The notes under the pieces were generated by a model. That model was not told the origin of the DNA and did no database searches. It saw only the letters and a list, made by a program, of their open reading frames with translations. 64,000 nt of DNA. Origin: a virus. The stretch lies in the IMG/VR virus record IMGVR_UViG_3300032053_000003, positions 158,392 through 222,391 of that record; one strand, 5' to 3'. Below are positions 7,937 through 53,657 of the stretch, piece by piece (position 1 is the stretch's first letter; every line of letters starts with the position of its first letter). The translations under genes and the position numbers were made by a program.

Positions 7937-8650
7937 TCAATCACGGTCCTTCTCCATACAATCAACCCAGGTACGTTGAGAGTTCACACAGAATAGGACA
8001 TGACCTATTTCAGATATCCTCATGGCTGCTCCATCTACCTTTTCAAACAGAGGACTGCCACCAAGGAGAGAGTGTTCATAAGAGAGGATATAACCGATAT
8101 CCCTACAATCTTTGAACCACAGTGGGTCCCTACGAGGTTCCTTGTCTCTCTGGATATTGTGGGCCGATCTTATGATGTCCCTGTACTTGGCTGATATCGG
8201 GAGGTAGGACAACTCTGAAGATCCCTTCATCCTTGTGCCACGAACATGTACAGCCTTTTTGAAAGCATCGTTTTCCAGGACAATGATATAATCCAGGTTC
8301 TGATCACAATACCCCATGAGTTTGGTGCCTTCCTTCTTGCAGGGGATGTACCATACATAGCTGTCCCCATTACCGTGACCACCCCTGTTCCTCTTGGTGT
8401 GACCGTGGGTCTTGAGGTAGTTATGGACATACTCTGCATCTTCCATCATTTTAGGCATGGCATGAACAAAGAAGTTTTGTATAACTTTACTGAGGAAATC
8501 AGTAAAGCTTTGCTGACTATACTCGTATGCTGCTATGAGACTGGCTATTGGATTCTGGGCATAGGATCTGTTATCTTTTGGAAAGTATTTTGTCATTATT
8601 GCAAGGAGTTCTTGAGTACAAAAGGTTGCTGCTGCTTCTATTTCTTTCAT
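7937..8650 (-). CDS. Hypothetical protein
   Basis: 237-aa ORF, translationally coupled to the Thg1-like gene through a 4-nt overlap. Confidence 0.5.
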   Translation of the reverse strand: MKEIEAAATFCTQELLAIMTKYFPKDNRSYAQNPIASLIAAYEYSQQSFTDFLSKVIQNFFVHAMPKMMEDAEYVHNYLKTHGHTKRNRGGHGNGDSYVWYIPCKKEGTKLMGYCDQNLDYIIVLENDAFKKAVHVRGTRMKGSSELSYLPISAKYRDIIRSAHNIQRDKEPRRDPLWFKDCRDIGYILSYEHSLLGGSPLFEKVDGAAMRISEIGHVLFCVNSQRTWVDCMEKDRD

Positions 8651-9534
8651 GACTTCTCCTTGAGTATTGTTTTAAATTGAAGTCTTAAGTAATTTTGGTC
8701 AACTACTAAAATTTTAGGCTCCTCTCCAAACAGGATGACCTCCACACGGTTCTGGACCTGTGTGATAGGAGGCATATCCAGGATCATCACATCTGTACGT
8801 TCTATCATCAGATCAGGGTTCTTCCTGGCATCATGCTTCTCAGGAAGCTTGTCCAGCTCATCAGTGGTAAATTTCCTGGAGGTCCTCCTCTTCTGAATGT
8901 AGGTGCCCCTCTTGAAAAATGCAGGGTAGTCATTCCAGTTTACACCCTTCTCATGAAGCATCTCCTGCATCTCACTGTTGCTCTTCTTATAGAGGACCTT
9001 GTGAGAGAAGTAATTTTGAGCAGCCATCTCTACACTGTTCCTGGTAGCATCTTTCTCTCTCCAGACAAACATGTTGGCAGCTTCCATCAAGGTAGGTACC
9101 TGCCATACCCTGCAGTCAAAAGCAGCTATTAGGGATGCTTTAGAGGGGATATACTCGGCTTTGTGGGTATTGAAGAAACCAGTAGCATAGGATGCAAGGA
9201 CACTGTTCATCTTCTGGACCTTACCATCAAAGAAGATCTTGCTTTTGTAGTCATTACTGTACCATACCAGGCTGATCTCGTCTGACTGACAGTACCCCAT
9301 GTTGGCCTGGGTTTCCTTCACTAGGTATTTGGCAGTCTGTCTCATGAGATCACAGAAGCCTCCGTCATAGGGACGTTTAAGACCCCTGCAGAAGGTATGG
9401 AAGGTCTTACCGTCTATACGACAACAAATAGGTAATAGAGGCAGAAATCTCTGACCTGCCTCAGCTTGTTCATATTCCTTCATACGTGTGTCTAAGGTAT
9501 CCATTTTTACTTTCATACGTAGTGACTCCCTCAA
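8647..9534 (-). CDS. Thg1-like protein (tRNA-His guanylyltransferase family 3'-5' nucleotidyltransferase)
   Basis: RIDGKTFHTF...KPYD, CQSDEISLV, FDCRVWQVP and VWREKDATRNS...AAQNYF align with Thg1 motifs (RIDGKKFH, GESDEYSF, FDSRCVAYP, SWRYVDTHINNLYNTTFW). Probable true start is MKVKMD behind GAGGGAG. Confidence 0.7.
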   Translation of the reverse strand: MRESLRMKVKMDTLDTRMKEYEQAEAGQRFLPLLPICCRIDGKTFHTFCRGLKRPYDGGFCDLMRQTAKYLVKETQANMGYCQSDEISLVWYSNDYKSKIFFDGKVQKMNSVLASYATGFFNTHKAEYIPSKASLIAAFDCRVWQVPTLMEAANMFVWREKDATRNSVEMAAQNYFSHKVLYKKSNSEMQEMLHEKGVNWNDYPAFFKRGTYIQKRRTSRKFTTDELDKLPEKHDARKNPDLMIERTDVMILDMPPITQVQNRVEVILFGEEPKILVVDQNYLRLQFKTILKEKS

Positions 9535-12655: not shown

Positions 12656-13588
12656 TTATAAGGCAAGGCTGAGATCAGCCTTGTGCTCTTCGTGGATGAT
12701 GCCCTGCATATAATCAGCAGCTTTCTGAGCCTGGGCAGCAGCAAGGACTACCATCTTGGTGTCGGCTTTGATGGTCTTTTTCCAAGAGGCCACATATGCA
12801 GCATTGTTTTCAATAGTATTATTTTCAATACCAGTAATGGCACATAAGAAGGCAGCAGTCATCTCAGCAACCAGTTCTTCTTTGCCATAATCGTTGCTAC
12901 CGAAATAGTTCAGGAAGTTTGAACGATGCAGCCTGGACTCATGACCAGTGCTGTGAGCAGCTTCGTGGAACAGTACACAGTAATACTTTTCCATGCTGGT
13001 GAACTGGTCCTGGTCGGGCATGGTGATTGTATCAGGGTCAGGGGAATAGTAAGCCCTGTTAGAGCCATGGTTGATCTTAGGGCATGTGGCATAAAGAGAC
13101 ATGATGTGCTCACAAGCATTTATTGGAGAGAGATCCTTCACAGGGGACTCATCAACCTTGGCAGCAGGAGCCTCAATGCCATCACACTGTTCGATATTGA
13201 ATACTGAGAAGTACCTGAGCATAGGGACTGTCTTGAACTTGGCATTGCCATCTTTGTTCAGAGCAGGGGTACCATCAGCATTAACGGCTGCTTTGCTAAG
13301 GAACTTCCAGAAGATAACCAATGTGGATTTCTCACCCTTACGGACCTGTCCACCTTTTTCCTGGCACTGCTTGTAGGAGAGCCAGTAAGGAGAGGAGTAA
13401 CCCTTCTCTTCAGCAGTGGCAAGGAGCAACCAGGGGTTAATGCCACGATACGGTTTCTTGGTGATAAAATTATACTGAGAAAAGCCACCGTTTCCAACCT
13501 TGTGGGTCCAGGGACGGTTCCACGGAACAACACCCTTATCAAGTAGTTCGATGATTCTGTTAGTAACGATTTCGTAAACATTAGCCAT
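12656..13588 (-). CDS. ardC: ArdC-like antirestriction protein (N-terminal ssDNA-binding ArdC-N domain plus zincin-like metallopeptidase domain)
   Basis: LDKGVVPWNRPW (ArdC-N) and VLFHEAAHSTGH (HExxH). True start is ATG 13588 behind AAGGAG. The ORF track's GTG 13639 lies inside the promoter motif. Confidence 0.7.
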   Translation of the reverse strand: MANVYEIVTNRIIELLDKGVVPWNRPWTHKVGNGGFSQYNFITKKPYRGINPWLLLATAEEKGYSSPYWLSYKQCQEKGGQVRKGEKSTLVIFWKFLSKAAVNADGTPALNKDGNAKFKTVPMLRYFSVFNIEQCDGIEAPAAKVDESPVKDLSPINACEHIMSLYATCPKINHGSNRAYYSPDPDTITMPDQDQFTSMEKYYCVLFHEAAHSTGHESRLHRSNFLNYFGSNDYGKEELVAEMTAAFLCAITGIENNTIENNAAYVASWKKTIKADTKMVVLAAAQAQKAADYMQGIIHEEHKADLSLAL

Positions 13589-13621
13589 AGGGGTTAGCTC
13601 CTTATTGTTTTGTCTTTCTAT

Positions 13622-13656
13622 CCCTATAACGGTTTTCACCCCAGCAGTTTGTACAA
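13622..13656 (-). promoter_or_regulatory. Conserved 35-bp promoter-like motif, copy 3 (consensus)
   Basis: ccctataacggttttcaccccagcagtttgtacaa followed by ctattttgtttatttt. Confidence 0.55.
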
Positions 13657-25071: not shown

Positions 25072-26271
25072 TCAAATCACTCCTTTTATACTGAAAATAG
25101 GCGATGCAGAAATCGTGTATAAATCTGAAAGTGTTGTTATTATGTTATCACGTGGCTCGCCTTCTGCACGATTCAAAGCATCTTTCAGGTATCGCTCAGA
25201 AATCTGGTGTGCAGCCCTCTGAATAGGAATATTGCCTGTAAATTTCAGAATAAGTATATCTTCTCTGATAGACTTACCAAAGCGATTGACAAATATCCGA
25301 TAGCGTTCACCTTTCAGGTGAAAGCATCCAAGTGATTCAGCAATATCACGAAGGATTCCTGAGTTGCTGAAGGAGATGCCTCGAACATTAGATTCGTGAC
25401 CAACGACAAGAACTAGAGTACCACCCTCTTTGAGTGTCATGCAAAAACTAACAAGGCATTGCTCCATATCGAGAGCGTATTGAACAACAGTCCGGAATCT
25501 GTTGCCCCGGTTCTTTCTATTAGATCCAATTTCACTTTCAGCAACTTTCAATAAATTAAAACCAAGGACCTCCAACAATGCACGGAAATTCTGATGATAG
25601 TTAAAAACATTGATATACGGAGGACTTGTAATAATGAGATCAGCAGACGCACGGCATTTCTCATGAGTCATTCGAGCATCACATAATTCAACATCAATCT
25701 TCTTGTCTGAGAATGGCAAATTGTATAGATATTCGCGAACGGACATGCATGCTTTATTGAGTGTAGACGACAAGTCTCCGTGTCCGTTGCTTTCTGCACG
25801 CATCAAAATAATGAGTGCTAGTAACATCTGTCTCTTGTTATCCATTGCATCAAATAGAGCGGAGGCACAATCCAAGAGATTCTTGTATTTTTTTCTAAAG
25901 TCATCGCTCACTTCAAACAGGGGCAAGTTATTATAAGACCTGGCTAAACGTGAAACCTTGTCTTGAACTCCATGGAAAAGCTGTGCTCGCTGGTTTATTT
26001 GGAGATTTCCGAAACCTATGAATTTAGACATCGCATAAGCTGCAGGATTTATCTCGCACCCAAGAGAGGGCATTTGCTTAGCGGAGGCCTCCAACAGAAC
26101 AGTGCCGCTACCGCAAAACGGATCAACAATTAGTGAACTGTGTGACGTTAAAGAATCAAGAAGATACTCGATTAGTTGAGGCGTGAATTGACCACGCCAG
26201 TTAAAAATATTAGACCTGCTCTTTGCTGATACATCAAGCATAGTCTGTTCAAGAAGTTCAGCATGCATCAT
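25072..26271 (-). CDS. Orphan amino-DNA methyltransferase (m6A or m4C), alpha-class motif order
   Basis: Motif I DPFCGSGTVLLEA near the N-terminus and motif IV IITSPPY about 165 aa later. No adjacent endonuclease. The gene is visibly CpG-richer than its surroundings. Confidence 0.75.
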   Translation of the reverse strand: MMHAELLEQTMLDVSAKSRSNIFNWRGQFTPQLIEYLLDSLTSHSSLIVDPFCGSGTVLLEASAKQMPSLGCEINPAAYAMSKFIGFGNLQINQRAQLFHGVQDKVSRLARSYNNLPLFEVSDDFRKKYKNLLDCASALFDAMDNKRQMLLALIILMRAESNGHGDLSSTLNKACMSVREYLYNLPFSDKKIDVELCDARMTHEKCRASADLIITSPPYINVFNYHQNFRALLEVLGFNLLKVAESEIGSNRKNRGNRFRTVVQYALDMEQCLVSFCMTLKEGGTLVLVVGHESNVRGISFSNSGILRDIAESLGCFHLKGERYRIFVNRFGKSIREDILILKFTGNIPIQRAAHQISERYLKDALNRAEGEPRDNIITTLSDLYTISASPIFSIKGVI

Positions 26272-37738: not shown

Positions 37739-37996
37739 TTAAGCATCCTTAATCAAGTGACCAAAGACTCTTTCAAGAACATCAGGTAACCCCCATGACT
37801 CTACCTTTAGAGCAGCTTCCACTTCAGTAAGGGATTCAAAGGAGTTGGCACCCTCTTGGTAGGTGAACCAGTTATTATTGGCTGTTCTGCAGAGGACAAC
37901 GTGGTCATATCCCTGACCAAAACTTGTAACCTCAGTTGCCATATCAGTGTCATACCTTACGAGCTTCTGAATAGTCTTCATTTCACCCCCCATCAA
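37739..37996 (-). CDS. Hypothetical protein
   Basis: 85-aa ORF. Confidence 0.4.
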   Translation of the reverse strand: MMGGEMKTIQKLVRYDTDMATEVTSFGQGYDHVVLCRTANNNWFTYQEGANSFESLTEVEAALKVESWGLPDVLERVFGHLIKDA

Positions 37997-39531
37997 ATTT
38001 GAATTTCCACGTTCCAGTTATATCGATCCCTTATCACCTTGTCCCTTGGCTGTTTGTCCTCAGGTATCTCTTCTTCACTGAGGATCTTGTGGTCCCACTT
38101 GTAAGCCTTCTCAGCATCATTGAACAACATCCTAAAGTCCTTCCTTAACCCTTCCTTACATTTCAGAACTATGCCAGTGTCAGTGTACACAACATCGAAG
38201 TCCAGACATCCACCCCAGCTTGTTCCCAGAGTGAAGTCCACAACTATAGGACATTCAATCCAAGGATACAGTCTAAGATTTTCTGTCTCACAGATGTGCT
38301 TAACCATTTTAATTAAGAGAGGCAGCTCACCAGGATAGATATCAAACAAAATACTGTCATGGACACTGCCTACTATGATAGATTTCAGACCCTTCCTCTT
38401 CATAGCCTTATAGAGTCTTCCTATAGAGTCTGATACAAGATCAGAGGCAGGACTTTGAATTTTATAGTTGACTGCCCTTCTGTGATTGGCTTCTTTATCT
38501 TCTTCACCTTTGAAGTTTATCATGTTGATAGGGATGATTCTGCCAAACACAGTTTCTACCGTGTGACTAGCATCTACCTCATTGTAGCACTCCTGGAAGT
38601 ACTCACTCAGACTTGTGCACCCTGAAAACAGACCATCCTTGATCTTCTTAGCTGCTTTTGTTGTGATATTGAGCTGCTCACCAAGGCTCTTATCGGAGAG
38701 GCCATAGATCAATCCGAAATTAACCGTTTTAGCCTCTTTCCTCTGTTTTTGTGTAACCTTATCAAGCTTTACCCCAAAGCAAACAGCAGCCGTAGCAGCA
38801 TGAATATCCACACCATTTTTAAAGGCTGTCAGCCACTTCTCTTCATGGGATAGAGAAGCTATTATTCTCAACTCCACCTGGGAAAAGTCAAAGCACCCAA
38901 ATAGACCTCCTACTTTTGCCCATCGGGATATAAAGAGTCTTTTAATATCTGAAACTTTGGGGAGGGTGTGAAATCCTGAAGAATGTCTGCCAGTTATAGT
39001 TCCATTTATTTGATAATTTGGATGATAGATGTTACCATCAAGATTATCACTGGCATTATCAAGATATGAGGATATTAGTTTCCTTAGTCCAGTATAAGCT
39101 GAGAGTGCAATAAGGAATTCCTTGGCATCAGCACTTGTATCCTTGTGTCTGATTAAGGCTTCGATAACATCCTTGTCAGTAGAGGGTGCAGATTTGCCCT
39201 CTTTAACTGATGTCATTTTGAAAAAGTCATCAAACAATATGCTCACTCTTTGCTGTGTGCTTCCAGGATTAAAGACTTTCTTTTCTAGCTCTTCCATGGA
39301 TAGTGGCTTCTTCTTTTTTGCATTATCTATGATGGCACTCTTCATACGAGGACGTATCCAATCTTCTATGAGACTAGCCATGGTGCCCCACTCACCTTTT
39401 GCCATCTCCTCATAAGCATTTTTTATGTAGTCAAAATTGTCTAAGTCAAACCAGATACCCTTAGTCTCAGCCTCGATAAACACAGGCAGTATGTTGTGAA
39501 GTATATCGATAACAACTTTACTCTTGCTCAT
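37993..39531 (-). CDS. Family-A DNA polymerase, polymerase (palm/fingers) subunit
   Basis: Motif A DFSQVELRIIA, motif B RKEAKTVNFGLIYG, motif C VHDSILFD. Confidence 0.85.
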   Translation of the reverse strand: MSKSKVVIDILHNILPVFIEAETKGIWFDLDNFDYIKNAYEEMAKGEWGTMASLIEDWIRPRMKSAIIDNAKKKKPLSMEELEKKVFNPGSTQQRVSILFDDFFKMTSVKEGKSAPSTDKDVIEALIRHKDTSADAKEFLIALSAYTGLRKLISSYLDNASDNLDGNIYHPNYQINGTITGRHSSGFHTLPKVSDIKRLFISRWAKVGGLFGCFDFSQVELRIIASLSHEEKWLTAFKNGVDIHAATAAVCFGVKLDKVTQKQRKEAKTVNFGLIYGLSDKSLGEQLNITTKAAKKIKDGLFSGCTSLSEYFQECYNEVDASHTVETVFGRIIPINMINFKGEEDKEANHRRAVNYKIQSPASDLVSDSIGRLYKAMKRKGLKSIIVGSVHDSILFDIYPGELPLLIKMVKHICETENLRLYPWIECPIVVDFTLGTSWGGCLDFDVVYTDTGIVLKCKEGLRKDFRMLFNDAEKAYKWDHKILSEEEIPEDKQPRDKVIRDRYNWNVEIQI

Positions 39532-40798
39532 TTGTTATCCTCTCATCAAGAGCAGTAAATAAGGCATCATTATAAAAAGTATCCAGAGCAGCATACTCAC
39601 CAAGAATAGAAGTGGGAATGTTGGCATAAGTACGATCCTCTATCTTACGAAACATCTTTATGTAGGTACTTACTGGAAGCTCCCAATTTGGAACACCAAA
39701 CCACTTCGTACAGAGTGTTTTTAGATCAAGATAACCAAAGGTCTGTCTTCCTATCAGTATGTGGGCAAGCAGCAGAGTATCATAGTAAACCCTGATCTTA
39801 TCTAGCTTTGCGATACCCATTGCTATAGCAAAATCTATGTCGAATTTAAGATTGTGGCCCACAATAGGTACAGTCTCTATCATCTCTCCTATAGCATGAT
39901 TAATCCTTACAATATTTTTGGCAGAGAGATCGATATTGATAGGATAGAACTTATTCATATATGGGTAATCCTCATGGTGCATGATGTTAGATATATGAAT
40001 AGGAACTGCTAAGGACTTTTTATTTACCAAGTTATTGTAAAAGGAGTACATGATGATCTTGTGTTTCCATGGAAGGAATCCACTAGTCTCACAGTCATAT
40101 AAAACATACTGAATAGCCTTGTCCTTGTAAGCTTCCACAATAAGCTTGGACTCTTTGATAGCCAAGGAGGGTTCAGCTATCACCCACTTCCTATCTTCCA
40201 CAGGCTCCTCTTTATCATGGTTAAGAGCCTCTCTGACTACGTTACGAAACTCCTTATCTGTTGTTGTGCCTATCTTGCCCCTGATAATATAAGAAGGGTG
40301 GTAGTTGGGGAAGAGCTTCCATACTCTGCCCTCTATGGTTACAAACTGTATATTACCTATCTCTTTTTCAATCCCTTTGTGCTTACCGATGAGGGATGTG
40401 AGAGGGCTGTTACCAAGGGACATGATTGCTGTCTCTTTAGGATTAAAGAGAGACAGCTCTTTATACAAGAAAGGTCGGCACCATTCTATTTCTTGGTTAG
40501 ACGGTTTTCTGGGACCTCGTTCATAATCAAAAGGATCTAGGTAAGGACAACACTTCACTGTGTTGGTTATGTATACAAGACCCTCCTCTTCCCCAAGAAC
40601 TTCTGATAAGAGCTGTCCCGATCTCCCAATGAAGACCTCACCTTCTAAGTCTTCAATTTTGCCAGGAGCCTCACCGATGATAATCAGCTTAGGATGATCA
40701 ATATTACCCCTAGCTCTTATCCTGGGTTTATTACAAAGCCTATGTAGGCCACATGCACCGCAATTATTTTCCATATTGCCCTTACCCTTTTGAAACAA
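39518..40798 (-). CDS. Family-A DNA polymerase N-terminal subunit: family-4 UDG-like domain plus 3'-5' exonuclease
   Basis: UDG-4 motifs IIGEAPG and GRSGQLL with N-terminal Cys residues. Exo I LYDCETSGF, Exo II HNLKFD, Exo III YAALD. Confidence 0.8.
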   Translation of the reverse strand: MFQKGKGNMENNCGACGLHRLCNKPRIRARGNIDHPKLIIIGEAPGKIEDLEGEVFIGRSGQLLSEVLGEEEGLVYITNTVKCCPYLDPFDYERGPRKPSNQEIEWCRPFLYKELSLFNPKETAIMSLGNSPLTSLIGKHKGIEKEIGNIQFVTIEGRVWKLFPNYHPSYIIRGKIGTTTDKEFRNVVREALNHDKEEPVEDRKWVIAEPSLAIKESKLIVEAYKDKAIQYVLYDCETSGFLPWKHKIIMYSFYNNLVNKKSLAVPIHISNIMHHEDYPYMNKFYPINIDLSAKNIVRINHAIGEMIETVPIVGHNLKFDIDFAIAMGIAKLDKIRVYYDTLLLAHILIGRQTFGYLDLKTLCTKWFGVPNWELPVSTYIKMFRKIEDRTYANIPTSILGEYAALDTFYNDALFTALDERITNEQE

Positions 40799-49692: not shown

Positions 49693-50202
49693 TTAGTACT
49701 TAGGGTTTCTCATACTGGTAGGATTCTTCATAGGTCCACCAGGGTTCTTTACCTTTTTCTTTTCCTCCTGGATCTTCCCTTCCTTACCTCTTTTGACCAG
49801 AGCCACCTGATTCATTGGGAACCACTGCTCTTCAACAGGATGCCCTTCTTTATTGAGTTCTTTACTCTGAATGCCTATCCTTACACATCCGTTGATCCAG
49901 AACCCATGGCCTATTACAGAGCCTTTGAATGCACCTACTTTGTCCTTGACCTCATCACTGAGCTGAATATCTATCTCAGGGAATTCAGGAGCCTCAAGGT
50001 CTGTAGCCTCTATGAACTTGAGAGAGGTACCATCGAAGAAGACAGGCTCAATAGGTCTCCCTTCATGAAGCTCTCTGCTCCTCACTCCATACCTATCCTG
50101 ATTGTAAAGGTAGCGTAAGTGTACCACTATCACTCCTTTAAACTCCGTTATGACATCCTGTACAACATCTCCGAGTTTGAAATCATAGCTTTCATTATTC
50201 AT
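49693..50202 (-). CDS. Hypothetical protein
   Basis: 169-aa ORF. Confidence 0.5.
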   Translation of the reverse strand: MNNESYDFKLGDVVQDVITEFKGVIVVHLRYLYNQDRYGVRSRELHEGRPIEPVFFDGTSLKFIEATDLEAPEFPEIDIQLSDEVKDKVGAFKGSVIGHGFWINGCVRIGIQSKELNKEGHPVEEQWFPMNQVALVKRGKEGKIQEEKKKVKNPGGPMKNPTSMRNPKY

Positions 50203-50918
50203 ATATCCTCCTTTGGATACTCTTTTGGTCTTGATAACAAATTTGGTTTAAAATACACTTTGCAATTGGACTTACGTGCTGCAATGAGCAAATTCTCTAC
50301 CCAGATCCATTCTGGTTGTCCTGCTGGCATCTTGGTAGATCTGCTTCTTCCTCCAATGATAACCCAATCAAACATAGACAGGTTAGGTACTCCCATGTCT
50401 TCTTCTAGAGGCTCAAAGGAAACAAATTTGACAGGAGCTTTAATCTTCATGAAGATTTGTCTGGTAGAATCCAGTCTGTCTTTTACATCAATAGTGGCTC
50501 CTACCCATACATTCTCAGGGAAGACGAATTCAAGATATCTTTCTGGGTTTTTTGTAAGTAGCAAATAATTCCATTGTGGGGATTTGGCACATATACCTAA
50601 AACCCTATCGATCCATTTTTTAGGGACCCACTTACCAAACAGATCACCCATAGAACATACAAATACGTTCTTATCACTGAGACTGTTTATCTTCTTGGGT
50701 GGCTTGCTGTTAACAGGTGCATTCAGCCTATTAGCATGGAAGGTAGGTTTGAACCCTTGGGGGTAGAATCTGGCAGCTATGTCACGAGCATAGCAATAGG
50801 TACAGCCATGGTTACACCCTGTGACAGGATTCCAAGACCACCGTGCCCACTCAATCTTGGCTCCTTCCTTACCCTCATTACTTTCATTGAATACACTTGT
50901 TGACTTTGAAGCCATCAT
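50199..50918 (-). CDS. Phage Gp37/Gp68 (DUF5131) family protein, radical-SAM-like
   Basis: WSWNPVTGCNHGCTYCYARD, with a CxxxCxxC motif. Confidence 0.7.
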   Translation of the reverse strand: MMASKSTSVFNESNEGKEGAKIEWARWSWNPVTGCNHGCTYCYARDIAARFYPQGFKPTFHANRLNAPVNSKPPKKINSLSDKNVFVCSMGDLFGKWVPKKWIDRVLGICAKSPQWNYLLLTKNPERYLEFVFPENVWVGATIDVKDRLDSTRQIFMKIKAPVKFVSFEPLEEDMGVPNLSMFDWVIIGGRSRSTKMPAGQPEWIWVENLLIAARKSNCKVYFKPNLLSRPKEYPKEDI

Positions 50919-51958
50919 ATCTCTTCCATTGTGCCCATCCCCATCTCTATGTCCTCTTCCTCATTGTCCTCCATCTCCATATTTTTCAGGTGTTCATCAA
51001 GCATTTCTTTATAGTCATCAAGCTCTTGCTTTGAAATAAAATCATCTAAATCCATCTTTCTTATCTGCTCTTTTGTATATTCTGATAAGAGGTATATTGC
51101 TTTCCCCTTCTCTGTTTTCTGGGAGTAAAACCCTGCATTCTCAAACTCATCCATGTTTGGCATATTGGTACAGATGAACATAACCCATTGGTGAATACCA
51201 TAAGTAAACCTGTTACACATGTAGTCCTTATGGAGCTTATTTAATATGTTCTTACCCAGGTGGTAGTTCTTATAATCAAACTTAGACCCTGAAAGTTTAC
51301 CTCCTTTTGAAACCCCCCTGCACCTCTTTATGGTGTTTACAGGTAAATTCATAAGTAGGTCTACCTTTTTAAACCTCTTAATTTTAAACAATTCTGGAAG
51401 GGCAGCAGGTCTGAAATCTGCAATCTCATTTTCATCGTCTTCATTATCTTTACCATAGACCATCTTAATCATTCCATTAGGGTCTATATAGACAAGACCA
51501 CGTTGAGTAGGCAGGTACCTCTGGTTTTTCTTACTCTCCTCTTGTACATAGTTTGTTACAAAGTCTATATAGTTCCCATGAATGATCTTAATATCAAACT
51601 GATCCCTACTAAACTCCAGGTGCTCTGAAAAGTACTGATCCAGGTTCTTTTTTAGTTCCTCACAGACCTCTCTGTCTTTATCAATAAACCTACATACAAA
51701 CTTCATCTCTTTGAGGTACTGAGCCTGAAAGTTAGGGTGATGATGTACAGTATCTAAAAAGATAAGAGGACTTCCGTATTTGCCATCTTCCTCTCTTCCA
51801 TAACCAGCACACAAATCCCAATAAATAAATGGTCTACTCCAAGTGTTCCATCTCCATTTTTTAAAGATGAGGCTGTTAACCCTCAATATCTCTGTTAGGG
51901 CTATAGTATACGTTTTATGTTTTACAGGTGTGACCTCAGAATAATATCTTCTTTTCAC
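50915..51958 (-). CDS. Candidate partner of Gp37/Gp68 (TcmP-like three-Cys-motif protein?)
   Basis: 347-aa ORF translationally coupled (4-nt overlap) to the DUF5131 gene. Several conserved Cys residues. The assignment rests on the known co-occurrence of the pair. Confidence 0.3.
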   Translation of the reverse strand: MKRRYYSEVTPVKHKTYTIALTEILRVNSLIFKKWRWNTWSRPFIYWDLCAGYGREEDGKYGSPLIFLDTVHHHPNFQAQYLKEMKFVCRFIDKDREVCEELKKNLDQYFSEHLEFSRDQFDIKIIHGNYIDFVTNYVQEESKKNQRYLPTQRGLVYIDPNGMIKMVYGKDNEDDENEIADFRPAALPELFKIKRFKKVDLLMNLPVNTIKRCRGVSKGGKLSGSKFDYKNYHLGKNILNKLHKDYMCNRFTYGIHQWVMFICTNMPNMDEFENAGFYSQKTEKGKAIYLLSEYTKEQIRKMDLDDFISKQELDDYKEMLDEHLKNMEMEDNEEEDIEMGMGTMEEI

Positions 51959-51971
51959 AGTACTCCCCCAG

Positions 51972-53657
51972 TTATTGTTGAACTACACTTGATATCTCGT
52001 TAACTTTTTCCACCTCAATAATGGATTCAAAGCTGGTTTTAAAGTCATTCTTATGGGTGATGATATAAATGCACAGGTTCTCATCAAAGATCATGTCAAT
52101 GCAGTTCAGGATCATCTGTATCCCTGTGTTGTCCAGGCTGTCAAAGATCTCATCGAAGACAAGGAGGTTTGTGCTTACACCAGCACACTCCAGTAGGAAC
52201 CTCTGAAGACTCAGGATGATGATTATATCGGCCCTTCTCTTCTCTCCACCAGAGAGTGACTTATAGCCTCTTTTGCCATCGTTTATTTGGATATCCACAC
52301 CACTCTCTTTCTGGCTTACACATAGAGAGATGATCATACTGTCAAGGATACTTGGTGATATCTCTGCAAGGATAGTGTTTACGAAGCTCAAATACTTCTC
52401 CAGTACCCTGGTTCTGAAAGGTGAAGAGGGTAGAAGCAGGGAAAGGATATAACTCACACCATTCAACTTTACTTCCATGTCCTTGAGCTGGGCATTGAGG
52501 TCATTTACTTCTGCAACCAGTTCATTCAGTTCTTTCTGTGTGTCACTGATCGATTCAGTAGTCTCCTCAGTTTGATCATCCATTCTGGCAATAATACCAC
52601 CCAAGTTATTGTTTAAGATCCTCAGTTCCCTTTTAGCTGCATAGATATCATTATCCATGAGGTTAATGCCATCCAGCAGTGATTCTAAGCCTCTTACCTT
52701 GGACTTCATCTTAGGAAGCTTGTCATCATAAGCTTCCAGCTTCATCCTGGCATCGGCTACCATGGAGACAGGATAGTTTTGACCACAGGTAGGACAGATA
52801 CCGTCTTCAATAAGATCAATCAAGGTCTTCATCTGCTCCTCAATGATAGAGCAGGATGATTTAATAGTGTCCAGGCTCTCACGTAGAGTAACAGGCTCTT
52901 CTGTACTGCACATTTCCCTCTTACTCTCAAGGTAATTGAGATTAGACCTTGCCTCACTGAGCTGTTTCTTTATCTCACGAAGCTCATCCTTGAAGTTGTT
53001 GTTGGCCTTTCCAGTGGCTGTCCTAAGGGTCTCCACCTCTGAATTTTTGGCAATCATTTTGCCTTCAACTACAGAGTACTGATTATCAAGTTCAGAGTGT
53101 GTTGCTAAGAGTAACTGCTTTTCCTTCTGGAACAGCTTATTAAAACTATCCCAACTATTTAGGCCCATCATGTCCTCAAGAACTCCCTTACGAATGGTAG
53201 GGGTCATGGTACTGAGGTTAATAGGCAAGCCTTGAATGACGGTTACTACTATGACAAATAAATCATAAGGGATTCCTATGATCCTATCTATAACATCTTC
53301 GATATTCTCTGTGTTTCTTGGTGAGATGTTCTCACCATTACAGCTTACTTTAACTTTGTTGGAGTCCTTTTTATCGTAGGTTCTAATGATCTCGTAGAGA
53401 TCGTCCTCTATAGAGAACTCAACACCTACAAGACATTTGCCTTTACCATCTCTTGATATATTTTTCTCTCTGAGAGTTCTCTTATAGAAGCACCAAGATA
53501 TGCTTTCAAAGAGGTGACTCTTCCCAGCACCATTGGACTCAGAGAAGTTGGTATCCCGATTAATGCCTGATACCATGTGCTTCCCCGATTCAAAGGGAAA
53601 GTCAAACTCTGCAAAGCTCCCAAAATTTGTACCCCATACTCTCTTAAATACAATCAT
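51972..53657 (-). CDS. sbcC: SbcC/Rad50-like ATPase
   Basis: Walker A SNGAGKSHLFESI, zinc-hook CPTCGQ, signature LSGGEKRR, Walker B LLVFDEIFDSLD. Confidence 0.8.
   Translation of the reverse strand: MIVFKRVWGTNFGSFAEFDFPFESGKHMVSGINRDTNFSESNGAGKSHLFESISWCFYKRTLREKNISRDGKGKCLVGVEFSIEDDLYEIIRTYDKKDSNKVKVSCNGENISPRNTENIEDVIDRIIGIPYDLFVIVVTVIQGLPINLSTMTPTIRKGVLEDMMGLNSWDSFNKLFQKEKQLLLATHSELDNQYSVVEGKMIAKNSEVETLRTATGKANNNFKDELREIKKQLSEARSNLNYLESKREMCSTEEPVTLRESLDTIKSSCSIIEEQMKTLIDLIEDGICPTCGQNYPVSMVADARMKLEAYDDKLPKMKSKVRGLESLLDGINLMDNDIYAAKRELRILNNNLGGIIARMDDQTEETTESISDTQKELNELVAEVNDLNAQLKDMEVKLNGVSYILSLLLPSSPFRTRVLEKYLSFVNTILAEISPSILDSMIISLCVSQKESGVDIQINDGKRGYKSLSGGEKRRADIIIILSLQRFLLECAGVSTNLLVFDEIFDSLDNTGIQMILNCIDMIFDENLCIYIITHKNDFKTSFESIIEVEKVNEISSVVQQ

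Follow-up and report, generated by a model that had tools for sequence, protein, structure and literature searches.

Two adjacent, overlapping genes in a 64,000-nucleotide stretch of an uncultured phage genome (positions 158,392 to 222,391 of IMG/VR record IMGVR_UViG_3300032053_000003; hereafter the window) encode a 239-residue protein of the DUF5131 family, also called Gp37/Gp68, and a 347-residue protein of the family named three-Cys-motif partner (TcmP). Such pairs are already catalogued, in the name given to TIGR04474 and in two candidate systems of PADLOC, PDC-M30 and PDC-M41, and the pair in the window is a new, divergent member. The reading we tentatively prefer, one that falls a little short of being probable, is that the two genes, translationally coupled and sufficient in themselves, encode a pair of enzymes that modifies DNA after replication. 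A fuller version must be considered rather doubtful: that the product is a base modification not yet described, dependent on radical S-adenosylmethionine (radical-SAM) chemistry, in which an RlmJ-like subunit picks the target and the 239-residue subunit does the chemistry, and that phages escape restriction by this means, the cellular versions, a number of which have HNH nucleases or restriction-type neighbors, forming a new class of modification-based immunity. The initial annotation of the stretch had suggested DNA or nucleotide modification. We infer the same, and the case is strengthened by a lyase-like fold in one protein, an RlmJ-like fold in the other, and DNA-binding fusions and neighbors.

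Both genes are on the minus strand. The gene encoding the TcmP-like protein (50915..51958) starts with GTG at 51958, 6 nt past a GGGGGAG Shine-Dalgarno sequence (51963..51969, minus strand). Its TGA stop and the ATG start of the DUF5131 gene (50199..50918) share four nucleotides, ATGA at 50915..50918, as can be read directly from the sequence and as the initial annotation had recorded, with both open reading frames (ORFs) where it placed them. A stop/start overlap of this kind implies translational coupling of TcmP and DUF5131. Immediately 3' of the DUF5131 gene, again with a 4-nt overlap, is a 169-residue ORF matching phrog_16275, whose function is not known. The pair is contained in a dense block of minus-strand genes between about 55.5 kb and about 43.9 kb of the window, which is itself part of a contig of about 237 kb (JGI; the ENA copy is about 231 kb). 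Megablast found no nucleotide relatives of the locus among 50,697 deposited phage records, and tblastn found no match to the partner protein in the same records, so the locus evidently has no isolated close relative.

By its sequence, the 239-residue protein is unambiguously a member of the DUF5131/Gp37-Gp68 family. It matches PF07505 with E 1.6e-43 and 149.4 bits (cut-off 28.9) over model positions 2-213 of 243, and phrog_2045 with E 4.9e-52, bearing out the initial annotation, which had recognized the family with its CxxxCxxC cluster. The cluster motif, WNPVTGCNHGCTYCYA, gives C35-x3-C39-x2-C42, and the codons of C35-x3-C39-x-Y41-C42 (50793..50816, minus strand) are marked by conservation among homologues as the predicted [4Fe-4S]/SAM-binding motif. 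C35, C39, and C42 are invariant in 120/120 database homologues and in every aligned copy from the loci considered here, and Y41 is found in 119/120. All of the residues that are invariant in the family (C35, C39, Y41, C42, S89, M90, D92, T122, K123, S167, E169, P170, and K224) are present in the window protein; the motifs checked were WNPxxGC-x3-C-x-Y-C, SM.D, TK, S.EP, and the C-terminal Lys. The family is very common. Among the matches listed, thousands of homologues share 55-67% identity with the protein, and at E<=1e-10 the cluster representatives number more than 7,900; DUF5131 also occurs in 140 isolated phage genomes. The majority of viral relatives are of a long form, with N-terminal extensions that are ParB-like ('IDGH(N/T)RY') or DUF3102, but the window protein is of the short form and carries no N-terminal DNA-binding extension.

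Outside of the cluster triad, no Cys is invariant: about 90% of homologues have one at position 88 and about half at position 168, where the window protein has Phe. Since only the triad is invariant, DUF5131 is not expected to have an auxiliary cluster or a Cys that is obligatory as hydrogen donor or methyl carrier, and methyl transfer of the two-cysteine RlmN/Cfr type is unlikely. Phe168 might have been taken as the mark of an inactive enzyme, but that idea was rejected, because so much of the wider family also lacks Cys at this variable position.

The structure model of DUF5131 (predicted local distance difference test score, or pLDDT, 90.7) has the partial TIM barrel of radical-SAM enzymes, with CxxxCxxC at the first strand-loop. 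The protein is a minimal radical-SAM barrel with a predicted [4Fe-4S]/SAM site. The closest solved fold is that of spore photoproduct lyase (SplB; PDB 4fhc), which scores above viperin, the similarity to viperin being generic to the radical-SAM core. RadicalSAM.org, whose superfamily listing has DUF5131 as a separate Pfam family, assigns the two to sub-clusters of one megacluster, DUF5131 to Megacluster-5-2 and spore photoproduct lyase to Megacluster-5-3. The general radical-SAM model, PF04055, gives the protein 20 bits, below the gathering score of 29.5, and only over residues 30-53. Searches of PDB sequences with each single protein of the pair gave no meaningful match, and the DUF5131 profile against PDB matched only immunoglobulin and major histocompatibility complex chains, all of them spurious.

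DUF5131 differs from spore photoproduct lyase in several respects. The two are 12% identical, and DUF5131 is about 100 residues shorter. The family models of spore photoproduct lyase are unmatched, while the cluster stretch hits models of the PA0069 and Rv2578c types at 20-27 bits, against cut-offs of 360-430. The hydrogen-donor Cys of the lyase has no conserved counterpart. Finally, DUF5131 needs, or at least travels with, a methyltransferase-like partner, and spore photoproduct lyase does not. A second comparison is with protein A of the radical SAM mobile pair (TIGR04471; protein B is TIGR04470). The homology spans most of DUF5131 (E 5e-25), though at 88.1 bits, against an equivalog cut-off of 355, it is not a member. 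TIGR04471 and TIGR04470 resemble the present case in that radical-SAM genes reside in two-gene mobile cassettes, but there the partner is a second radical-SAM enzyme and here it is a protein of methyltransferase fold. To our knowledge, the radical-SAM enzymes known to act on DNA are very few: spore photoproduct lyase and gp53 of phage M6. The latter, an isomerase of the spore-photoproduct-lyase type, takes part in thymidine hypermodification and acts on DNA post-replication (PMC8989533), and as a phage radical-SAM enzyme of lyase type that works on DNA, it is the nearest functional precedent for the mechanism proposed below. However, gp53 sits in a cluster of 5-hydroxymethyldeoxyuridine, kinase, and pyridoxal-phosphate-enzyme genes, none of which accompanies the pair here.

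The initial annotation had staked its proposal in part on the partner being TcmP, and this identification survives, although by a small margin. The 347-residue protein passes TIGR04474 with E 3.8e-16 and 59.8 bits (cut-off 53), but the match covers only model positions 20-140 of 263, making the pass narrow, indeed borderline. It also matches PDC-M30A and PDC-M41A, the corresponding PADLOC models. No Pfam or PHROG match was found. A word-indexed protein search with the partner returned itself and one fusion only, and with a 40-sequence alignment, four proteins; the family was recovered only by an exhaustive HMMER search of 1.84 billion representatives, which yielded 186 relatives at E<=1e-3. 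Partner residues 6-305 align end to end with TcmP-like relatives of about 260 residues (by HMMER and in alignment A1), and an iterated hidden Markov model (HMM) connects the partner's clade to the canonical TcmPs of Gordonia phage Jablanski and Synechococcus phage Ssp-JY39. Members of the clade score 45-63 bits on TIGR04474 and the canonical phage TcmPs 117-216 bits, from which it follows that the partner belongs to a divergent TcmP clade. The protein ends in a strongly acidic, helical tail (…EMEDNEEEDIEMGMGTMEEI; residues ~305-347; 50915-51043, minus strand) that is absent from the aligned homologues.

Invariant in the TcmP alignment are K13, G52, S63, L102, G154, Y157, D159, and K211. The several conserved Cys residues that had been attributed to the partner are not borne out, as no Cys is conserved; the "three-Cys motif" of the family name is a feature of the DUF5131 protein. 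The TcmP model (pLDDT 83; predicted template modeling score 0.84) has the fold of class-I SAM-methyltransferases. When the TcmP profile was run against PDB, chains of RlmJ were the sole matches (E ~1), and a 116-sequence profile aligned with E. coli RlmJ (a sequence 100% identical to PDB 4blu) at an hhalign probability of 86%, pairing GLVYIDPNG with GLILIDPPYE and NTIKR with QQIKR. RlmJ, also named YhiR, is the 23S rRNA m6A2030 methyltransferase and shows no activity on single-stranded DNA with the sequence of its target; in it, S100 and D164 hold the amino-acid moiety of SAM and E118 the ribose, the K18-D164 pair is catalytic, and Y167 of the DPPY motif does not stack on the base (PMC3814359). 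The PDB entries concerned are 6qe5, 4blu, and 2oo3, and they include the RlmJ homologue LPL1258.

Correspondence between the two proteins was established by alignment and inspection, not superposition. The model appears to have a Rossmann fold of the RlmJ type, including the motif X helix at the N-terminus, and the residues shared are the Lys of that N-terminal helix (K18 in RlmJ, K13 in TcmP), the Ser of "GSPLI" (S100/S63), the Asp of motif IV (D164/D159), motif I of the form YxD..AGxG (D48, G52, and G54 in TcmP), and "IKR" after strand 5. In the TcmP alignment, K13, D48, G52, G54, S63, and D159 are invariant or almost so. The counterpart of E118 is the acidic residue that ends strand 2, D93 in the window protein. 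The codons of motif I, D48-L-C-A-G52-Y-G54 (consensus YxDLNAGxG), lie at 51797..51817 on the minus strand, and the RlmJ counterpart, by HMM and hhalign, is LDTHAGAG. Those of motif IV, D159-P-N-G (consensus GLxYxDPNG), lie at 51473..51484 on the same strand, and hhalign places them at the position of the catalytic D164-P-P-Y of RlmJ. It is here that the proteins part: DPPY in RlmJ is DPNG in the window protein and in the consensus of the TcmP family. TcmP also lacks the helical subdomain of about 47 residues by which RlmJ recognizes helix 72 of rRNA, located between motif I and GSPLI, so that about 10 residues separate these motifs in TcmP and about 50 in RlmJ. Moreover, RlmJ works alone on rRNA, whereas TcmP is always found with a radical-SAM partner. 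We infer that TcmP is probably a distant relative of RlmJ, predicted to keep its cofactor-binding and catalytic residues.

In phages, in prophages, and in cellular islands alike, the two genes travel as a unit. In IMG/VR loci seeded with DUF5131, TcmP is adjacent and on the same strand in 22/24, and in those seeded with the TcmP alignment (for which the tighter sub-alignment A3 was used), DUF5131 lies directly downstream in 7/7, in keeping with the co-conservation that the initial annotation had set as a condition. Among species genomes of GTDB, 38 of 79 DUF5131 loci have the pair (22 of the 40 flanked on either side by 2.5 kb or more), with TcmP always upstream and on the same strand. Gordonia phage Jablanski, whose gp43 is annotated "methyltransferase" and adjoins gp42, and Synechococcus phage Ssp-JY39 are isolated phages with a canonical TcmP beside DUF5131, in convergent orientation. 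Head-to-tail overlap recurs elsewhere, of 4 nt in the P0035 loci, 8 nt in Leptolyngbya (locus L061), and 11 nt in the most closely related contig (L128), and a natural fusion of 584 residues (P0002) joins a TcmP-like N-terminal half to a radical-SAM C-terminal half. The window pair resembles the known pair of DUF5131 (PF07505, COG4422) and TcmP (TIGR04474) in being adjacent, on the same strand, and overlapping, and its adjacent genes match both components of PDC-M30/PDC-M41 (143-145 bits for the B component, 43 for M30A, 21 for M41A). It differs from the known pair in its divergent TcmP clade, the unique acidic tail, the short form of DUF5131, and the phage genome of about 237 kb that carries it.

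Clustering of neighbors in 60 pair loci brought out no third conserved gene, which implies that the cassette is autonomous and its SbcCD neighborhood incidental. The initial annotation was right to place the pair beside SbcCD, among genes of replication and recombination: a gene encoding an SbcC-like ATPase (51972..53657, minus strand; phrog_77, E 9e-79) lies directly upstream, 13 nt before the 347-residue ORF. The order SbcC-TcmP-DUF5131 is the same in L128. A functional link to SbcCD was nonetheless rejected, as SbcC stands beside the pair in L128 only and not in the other 60 pair loci. The adjacency reflects the packed replication module of the phage rather than a conserved functional link, and SbcC is best regarded as context, outside the conserved module.

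One cellular locus deserves separate mention. In Leptolyngbya sp. PCC 6406 (L061, 5703-8765), the gene immediately upstream of TcmP and DUF5131, on their strand, encodes a class-V aminotransferase of cysteine-desulfurase type (PF00266, 289 bits), beside an IS66 transposase. No family of this kind recurred when the neighbors at the 60 pair loci were clustered, the other loci not having been examined individually.

The two partners do not evolve at the same rate. Between L128 and the window, identity is 83% for the C-terminus of SbcC, 67% for DUF5131, and 30% for TcmP. Over 74 pair loci, those whose DUF5131 proteins are 50-60% identical have TcmPs with a median identity of 26%. Across the identity bands, TcmP was the partner with less conservation in 93% to 100% of the comparisons. 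TcmP evolves about twice as fast as DUF5131, as would be expected if DUF5131 were a constrained catalytic core and TcmP a subunit responsible for specificity or engaged in an arms race.

What might the substrate be? Several lines point to DNA: the lyase-type fold, the ParB-like and HNH fusions, restriction-type neighbors, the PADLOC listing, and the precedent of gp53. Besides the N-terminal extensions of long-form DUF5131, there is an HNH nuclease domain at the C-terminal end of some TcmPs. The fusion protein P0002 was observed in an island (L002/L003, 1-7755) together with a SNF2/PLD helicase of at least 1117 residues and an Eco57I-type N6-methylase of about 1130 residues with a TaqI_C domain. 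The three genes overlap or abut, and the island looks like a restriction-type defense system that has incorporated the fused pair.

A different neighbor was noticed at loci without TcmP. A ParB-like family of about 290-340 residues, with the motif DGQ(N/H)RL, is encoded beside DUF5131 in L048 (6498-7370), L051 (6432-7364), L054 (6348-7370), L098 (2086-3075), and L035 (9569-10522) and is possibly an alternative partner; such a neighbor is one more pointer to DNA as the substrate. The family (alignment A4) has no NCBIfam match, and its ParB-like label derives from the motif alone.

The mechanism we propose would run as follows. Both proteins would be made in equal amounts from the overlapping genes and would form a complex. 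TcmP would bind SAM and DNA, flip out the target base, and so set the specificity, a role that would explain its roughly twofold faster evolution. DUF5131, which at 239 residues has no substrate-binding domain of its own, would dock on TcmP, bind a [4Fe-4S] cluster through C35, C39, and C42, and cleave a second SAM to give the 5'-deoxyadenosyl radical. The radical would then abstract hydrogen from the base, or perhaps from a group that TcmP had just installed. A modified base would result, and with it replicating phage DNA would be protected against the nucleases of the host.

Several observations weigh against this proposal. The kinship of TcmP with RlmJ is weak in sequence, as the E value against PDB indicates, and a Foldseek search of PDB with the TcmP model found generic class-I methyltransferases only and did not single out RlmJ. 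The assignment of the fold is therefore solid, but the specific kinship with RlmJ is only moderately supported. RlmJ is moreover an RNA enzyme, which leaves room for an RNA target, and with DPNG in place of DPPY, it may be that TcmP transfers no methyl group. The ParB-like label of the long-form DUF5131 proteins comes from a precomputed PF02195 hit and the motif, the Pfam scan made here falling short of E 0.01. About half of cellular DUF5131 loci have no detectable TcmP, so DUF5131 may have other partners or act by itself. Finally, the literature searched holds no experimental or functional study of either DUF5131 or TcmP, only mentions at the level of annotation, and PDC-M30 and PDC-M41 are mentioned in genome surveys only.

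Perhaps the pair is a system of defense or superinfection exclusion carried by the phage, a copy of PDC-M30/PDC-M41 that acts against competing phages or plasmids, for instance by damaging or marking foreign nucleic acid, instead of protecting the DNA of the phage itself. One might think so from the match of both proteins to the PADLOC candidate-system models, from the restriction-type methylase and SNF2/PLD helicase beside the fused homologue, from the HNH nuclease domain on some TcmPs, and from S. meliloti, where a TcmP gene lies within the putative hna defense transcriptional unit (PMC12445080). However, the PDC systems are predictions from genomic association, the pair in the window has no nuclease or other effector domain, and its overlapping genes sit inside a replication and recombination block of the phage. 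Modification genes that are mobile likewise gather in defense islands. We consider this explanation unlikely.

Somewhat less likely still is that the pair serves DNA repair. DUF5131 would then use radical chemistry to reverse a lesion directly, in the manner of spore photoproduct lyase, and TcmP would recognize the lesion and flip the base. The lyase is the closest solved fold and shares the megacluster, and the window pair is found among genes for SbcCD, a RecA-like protein, a helicase, and an exonuclease. Yet the link to SbcC is not kept beyond L128, no hydrogen-donor Cys is conserved (neither position 88 nor position 168 qualifies), and the fast evolution of TcmP suits an arms race or shifting specificity better than a fixed lesion. 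Nor would associations with defense islands, HNH domains, and restriction-type genes be foreseen for a repair enzyme.

Modification of RNA, by which TcmP would target rRNA or tRNA like RlmJ and its radical-SAM partner would add a group to RNA of the host or the phage, or alter one, to retune translation, seems to us very unlikely. It has in its favor that the closest characterized relative of TcmP is an rRNA enzyme inactive on single-stranded DNA (PMC3814359) and that a gene for a Thg1-like tRNA enzyme is present at another place in the window. Against it, TcmP lacks the subdomain by which RlmJ recognizes helix 72, the fusions and neighbors (ParB-like, HNH, restriction methylase) are of DNA-associated types, a fixed RNA target would leave the fast divergence of TcmP unexplained, and the window has no tRNA genes.

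Least likely of all, though by a small margin, is chemistry on free nucleotides, in which DUF5131 would act on a nucleoside triphosphate like viperin and TcmP would methylate it to give a modified deoxynucleoside triphosphate (dNTP) or a chain-terminating antiviral nucleotide: the initial annotation also raised nucleotide metabolism, and ParB-type domains, which bind CTP, are fused to some DUF5131 proteins, but the likeness to viperin is outscored by that to spore photoproduct lyase, the genes conserved with the pair include none for a nucleotide kinase, the dNTP pathway, or a synthase, and the closest relatives of TcmP act on polynucleotides.

Several other genes in the window were noted. Divergent from the SbcD-SbcC-TcmP-DUF5131 block is a gene for a DinG/XPD-type helicase (56371-58020, plus strand; Helicase_C_2, 95 bits), in which a stretch of four Cys, C-x10-C-x5-C-x5-C, suggests an Fe-S cluster. 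The family-A DNA polymerase is split (37993-40798, minus strand), consisting of a 426-residue fusion of uracil-DNA-glycosylase-superfamily and 3'-5' exonuclease domains followed by an overlapping 512-residue polymerase-domain protein. A vault-like protein of 892 residues (30581-33259, minus strand) matches the shoulder of Major Vault Protein (PF11978, 72 bits) and the vault repeat (PF17795, 35 bits), and a vault-like shell protein is unusual in a phage of about 237 kb. The Thg1-like tRNA-His guanylyltransferase mentioned above (8647-9534, minus strand; PF04446, 102 bits) is of the 3'-5' polymerase family. Also on the minus strand, an ArdC-like protein (12656-13639) combines the N-terminal domain of ArdC (PF08401, 128 bits) with a zincin metallopeptidase domain (PF18818, 131 bits) and is a candidate anti-restriction factor of the phage. 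A 399-residue protein (25072-26271, minus strand) may be a second, conventional DNA methyltransferase; its match to the N6/N4 DNA methylase model PF01555 (52 bits) is confined to residues 17-82 and to the C-terminal portion of the model.

DUF5131 is very abundant, and yet no functional study of it was found in the literature searched. Added here are the RlmJ-like reading of TcmP, the reading of DUF5131 as akin to photoproduct lyase, the asymmetry in evolutionary rate, and the list of fusions linked to DNA. With these, what was a domain of unknown function plus a partner becomes a concrete model, in which particular residues can be named (C35, C39, and C42 of DUF5131; K13, S63, and D159 of TcmP), as can culturable phages with the canonical pair, Gordonia phage Jablanski and Synechococcus phage Ssp-JY39. 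If the model is wrong, the pair stays what it has been, an ordinary, already catalogued pair of domains without known function. If it is true, the pair would represent a new route of DNA modification, and two of the candidate systems of PADLOC would be explained.

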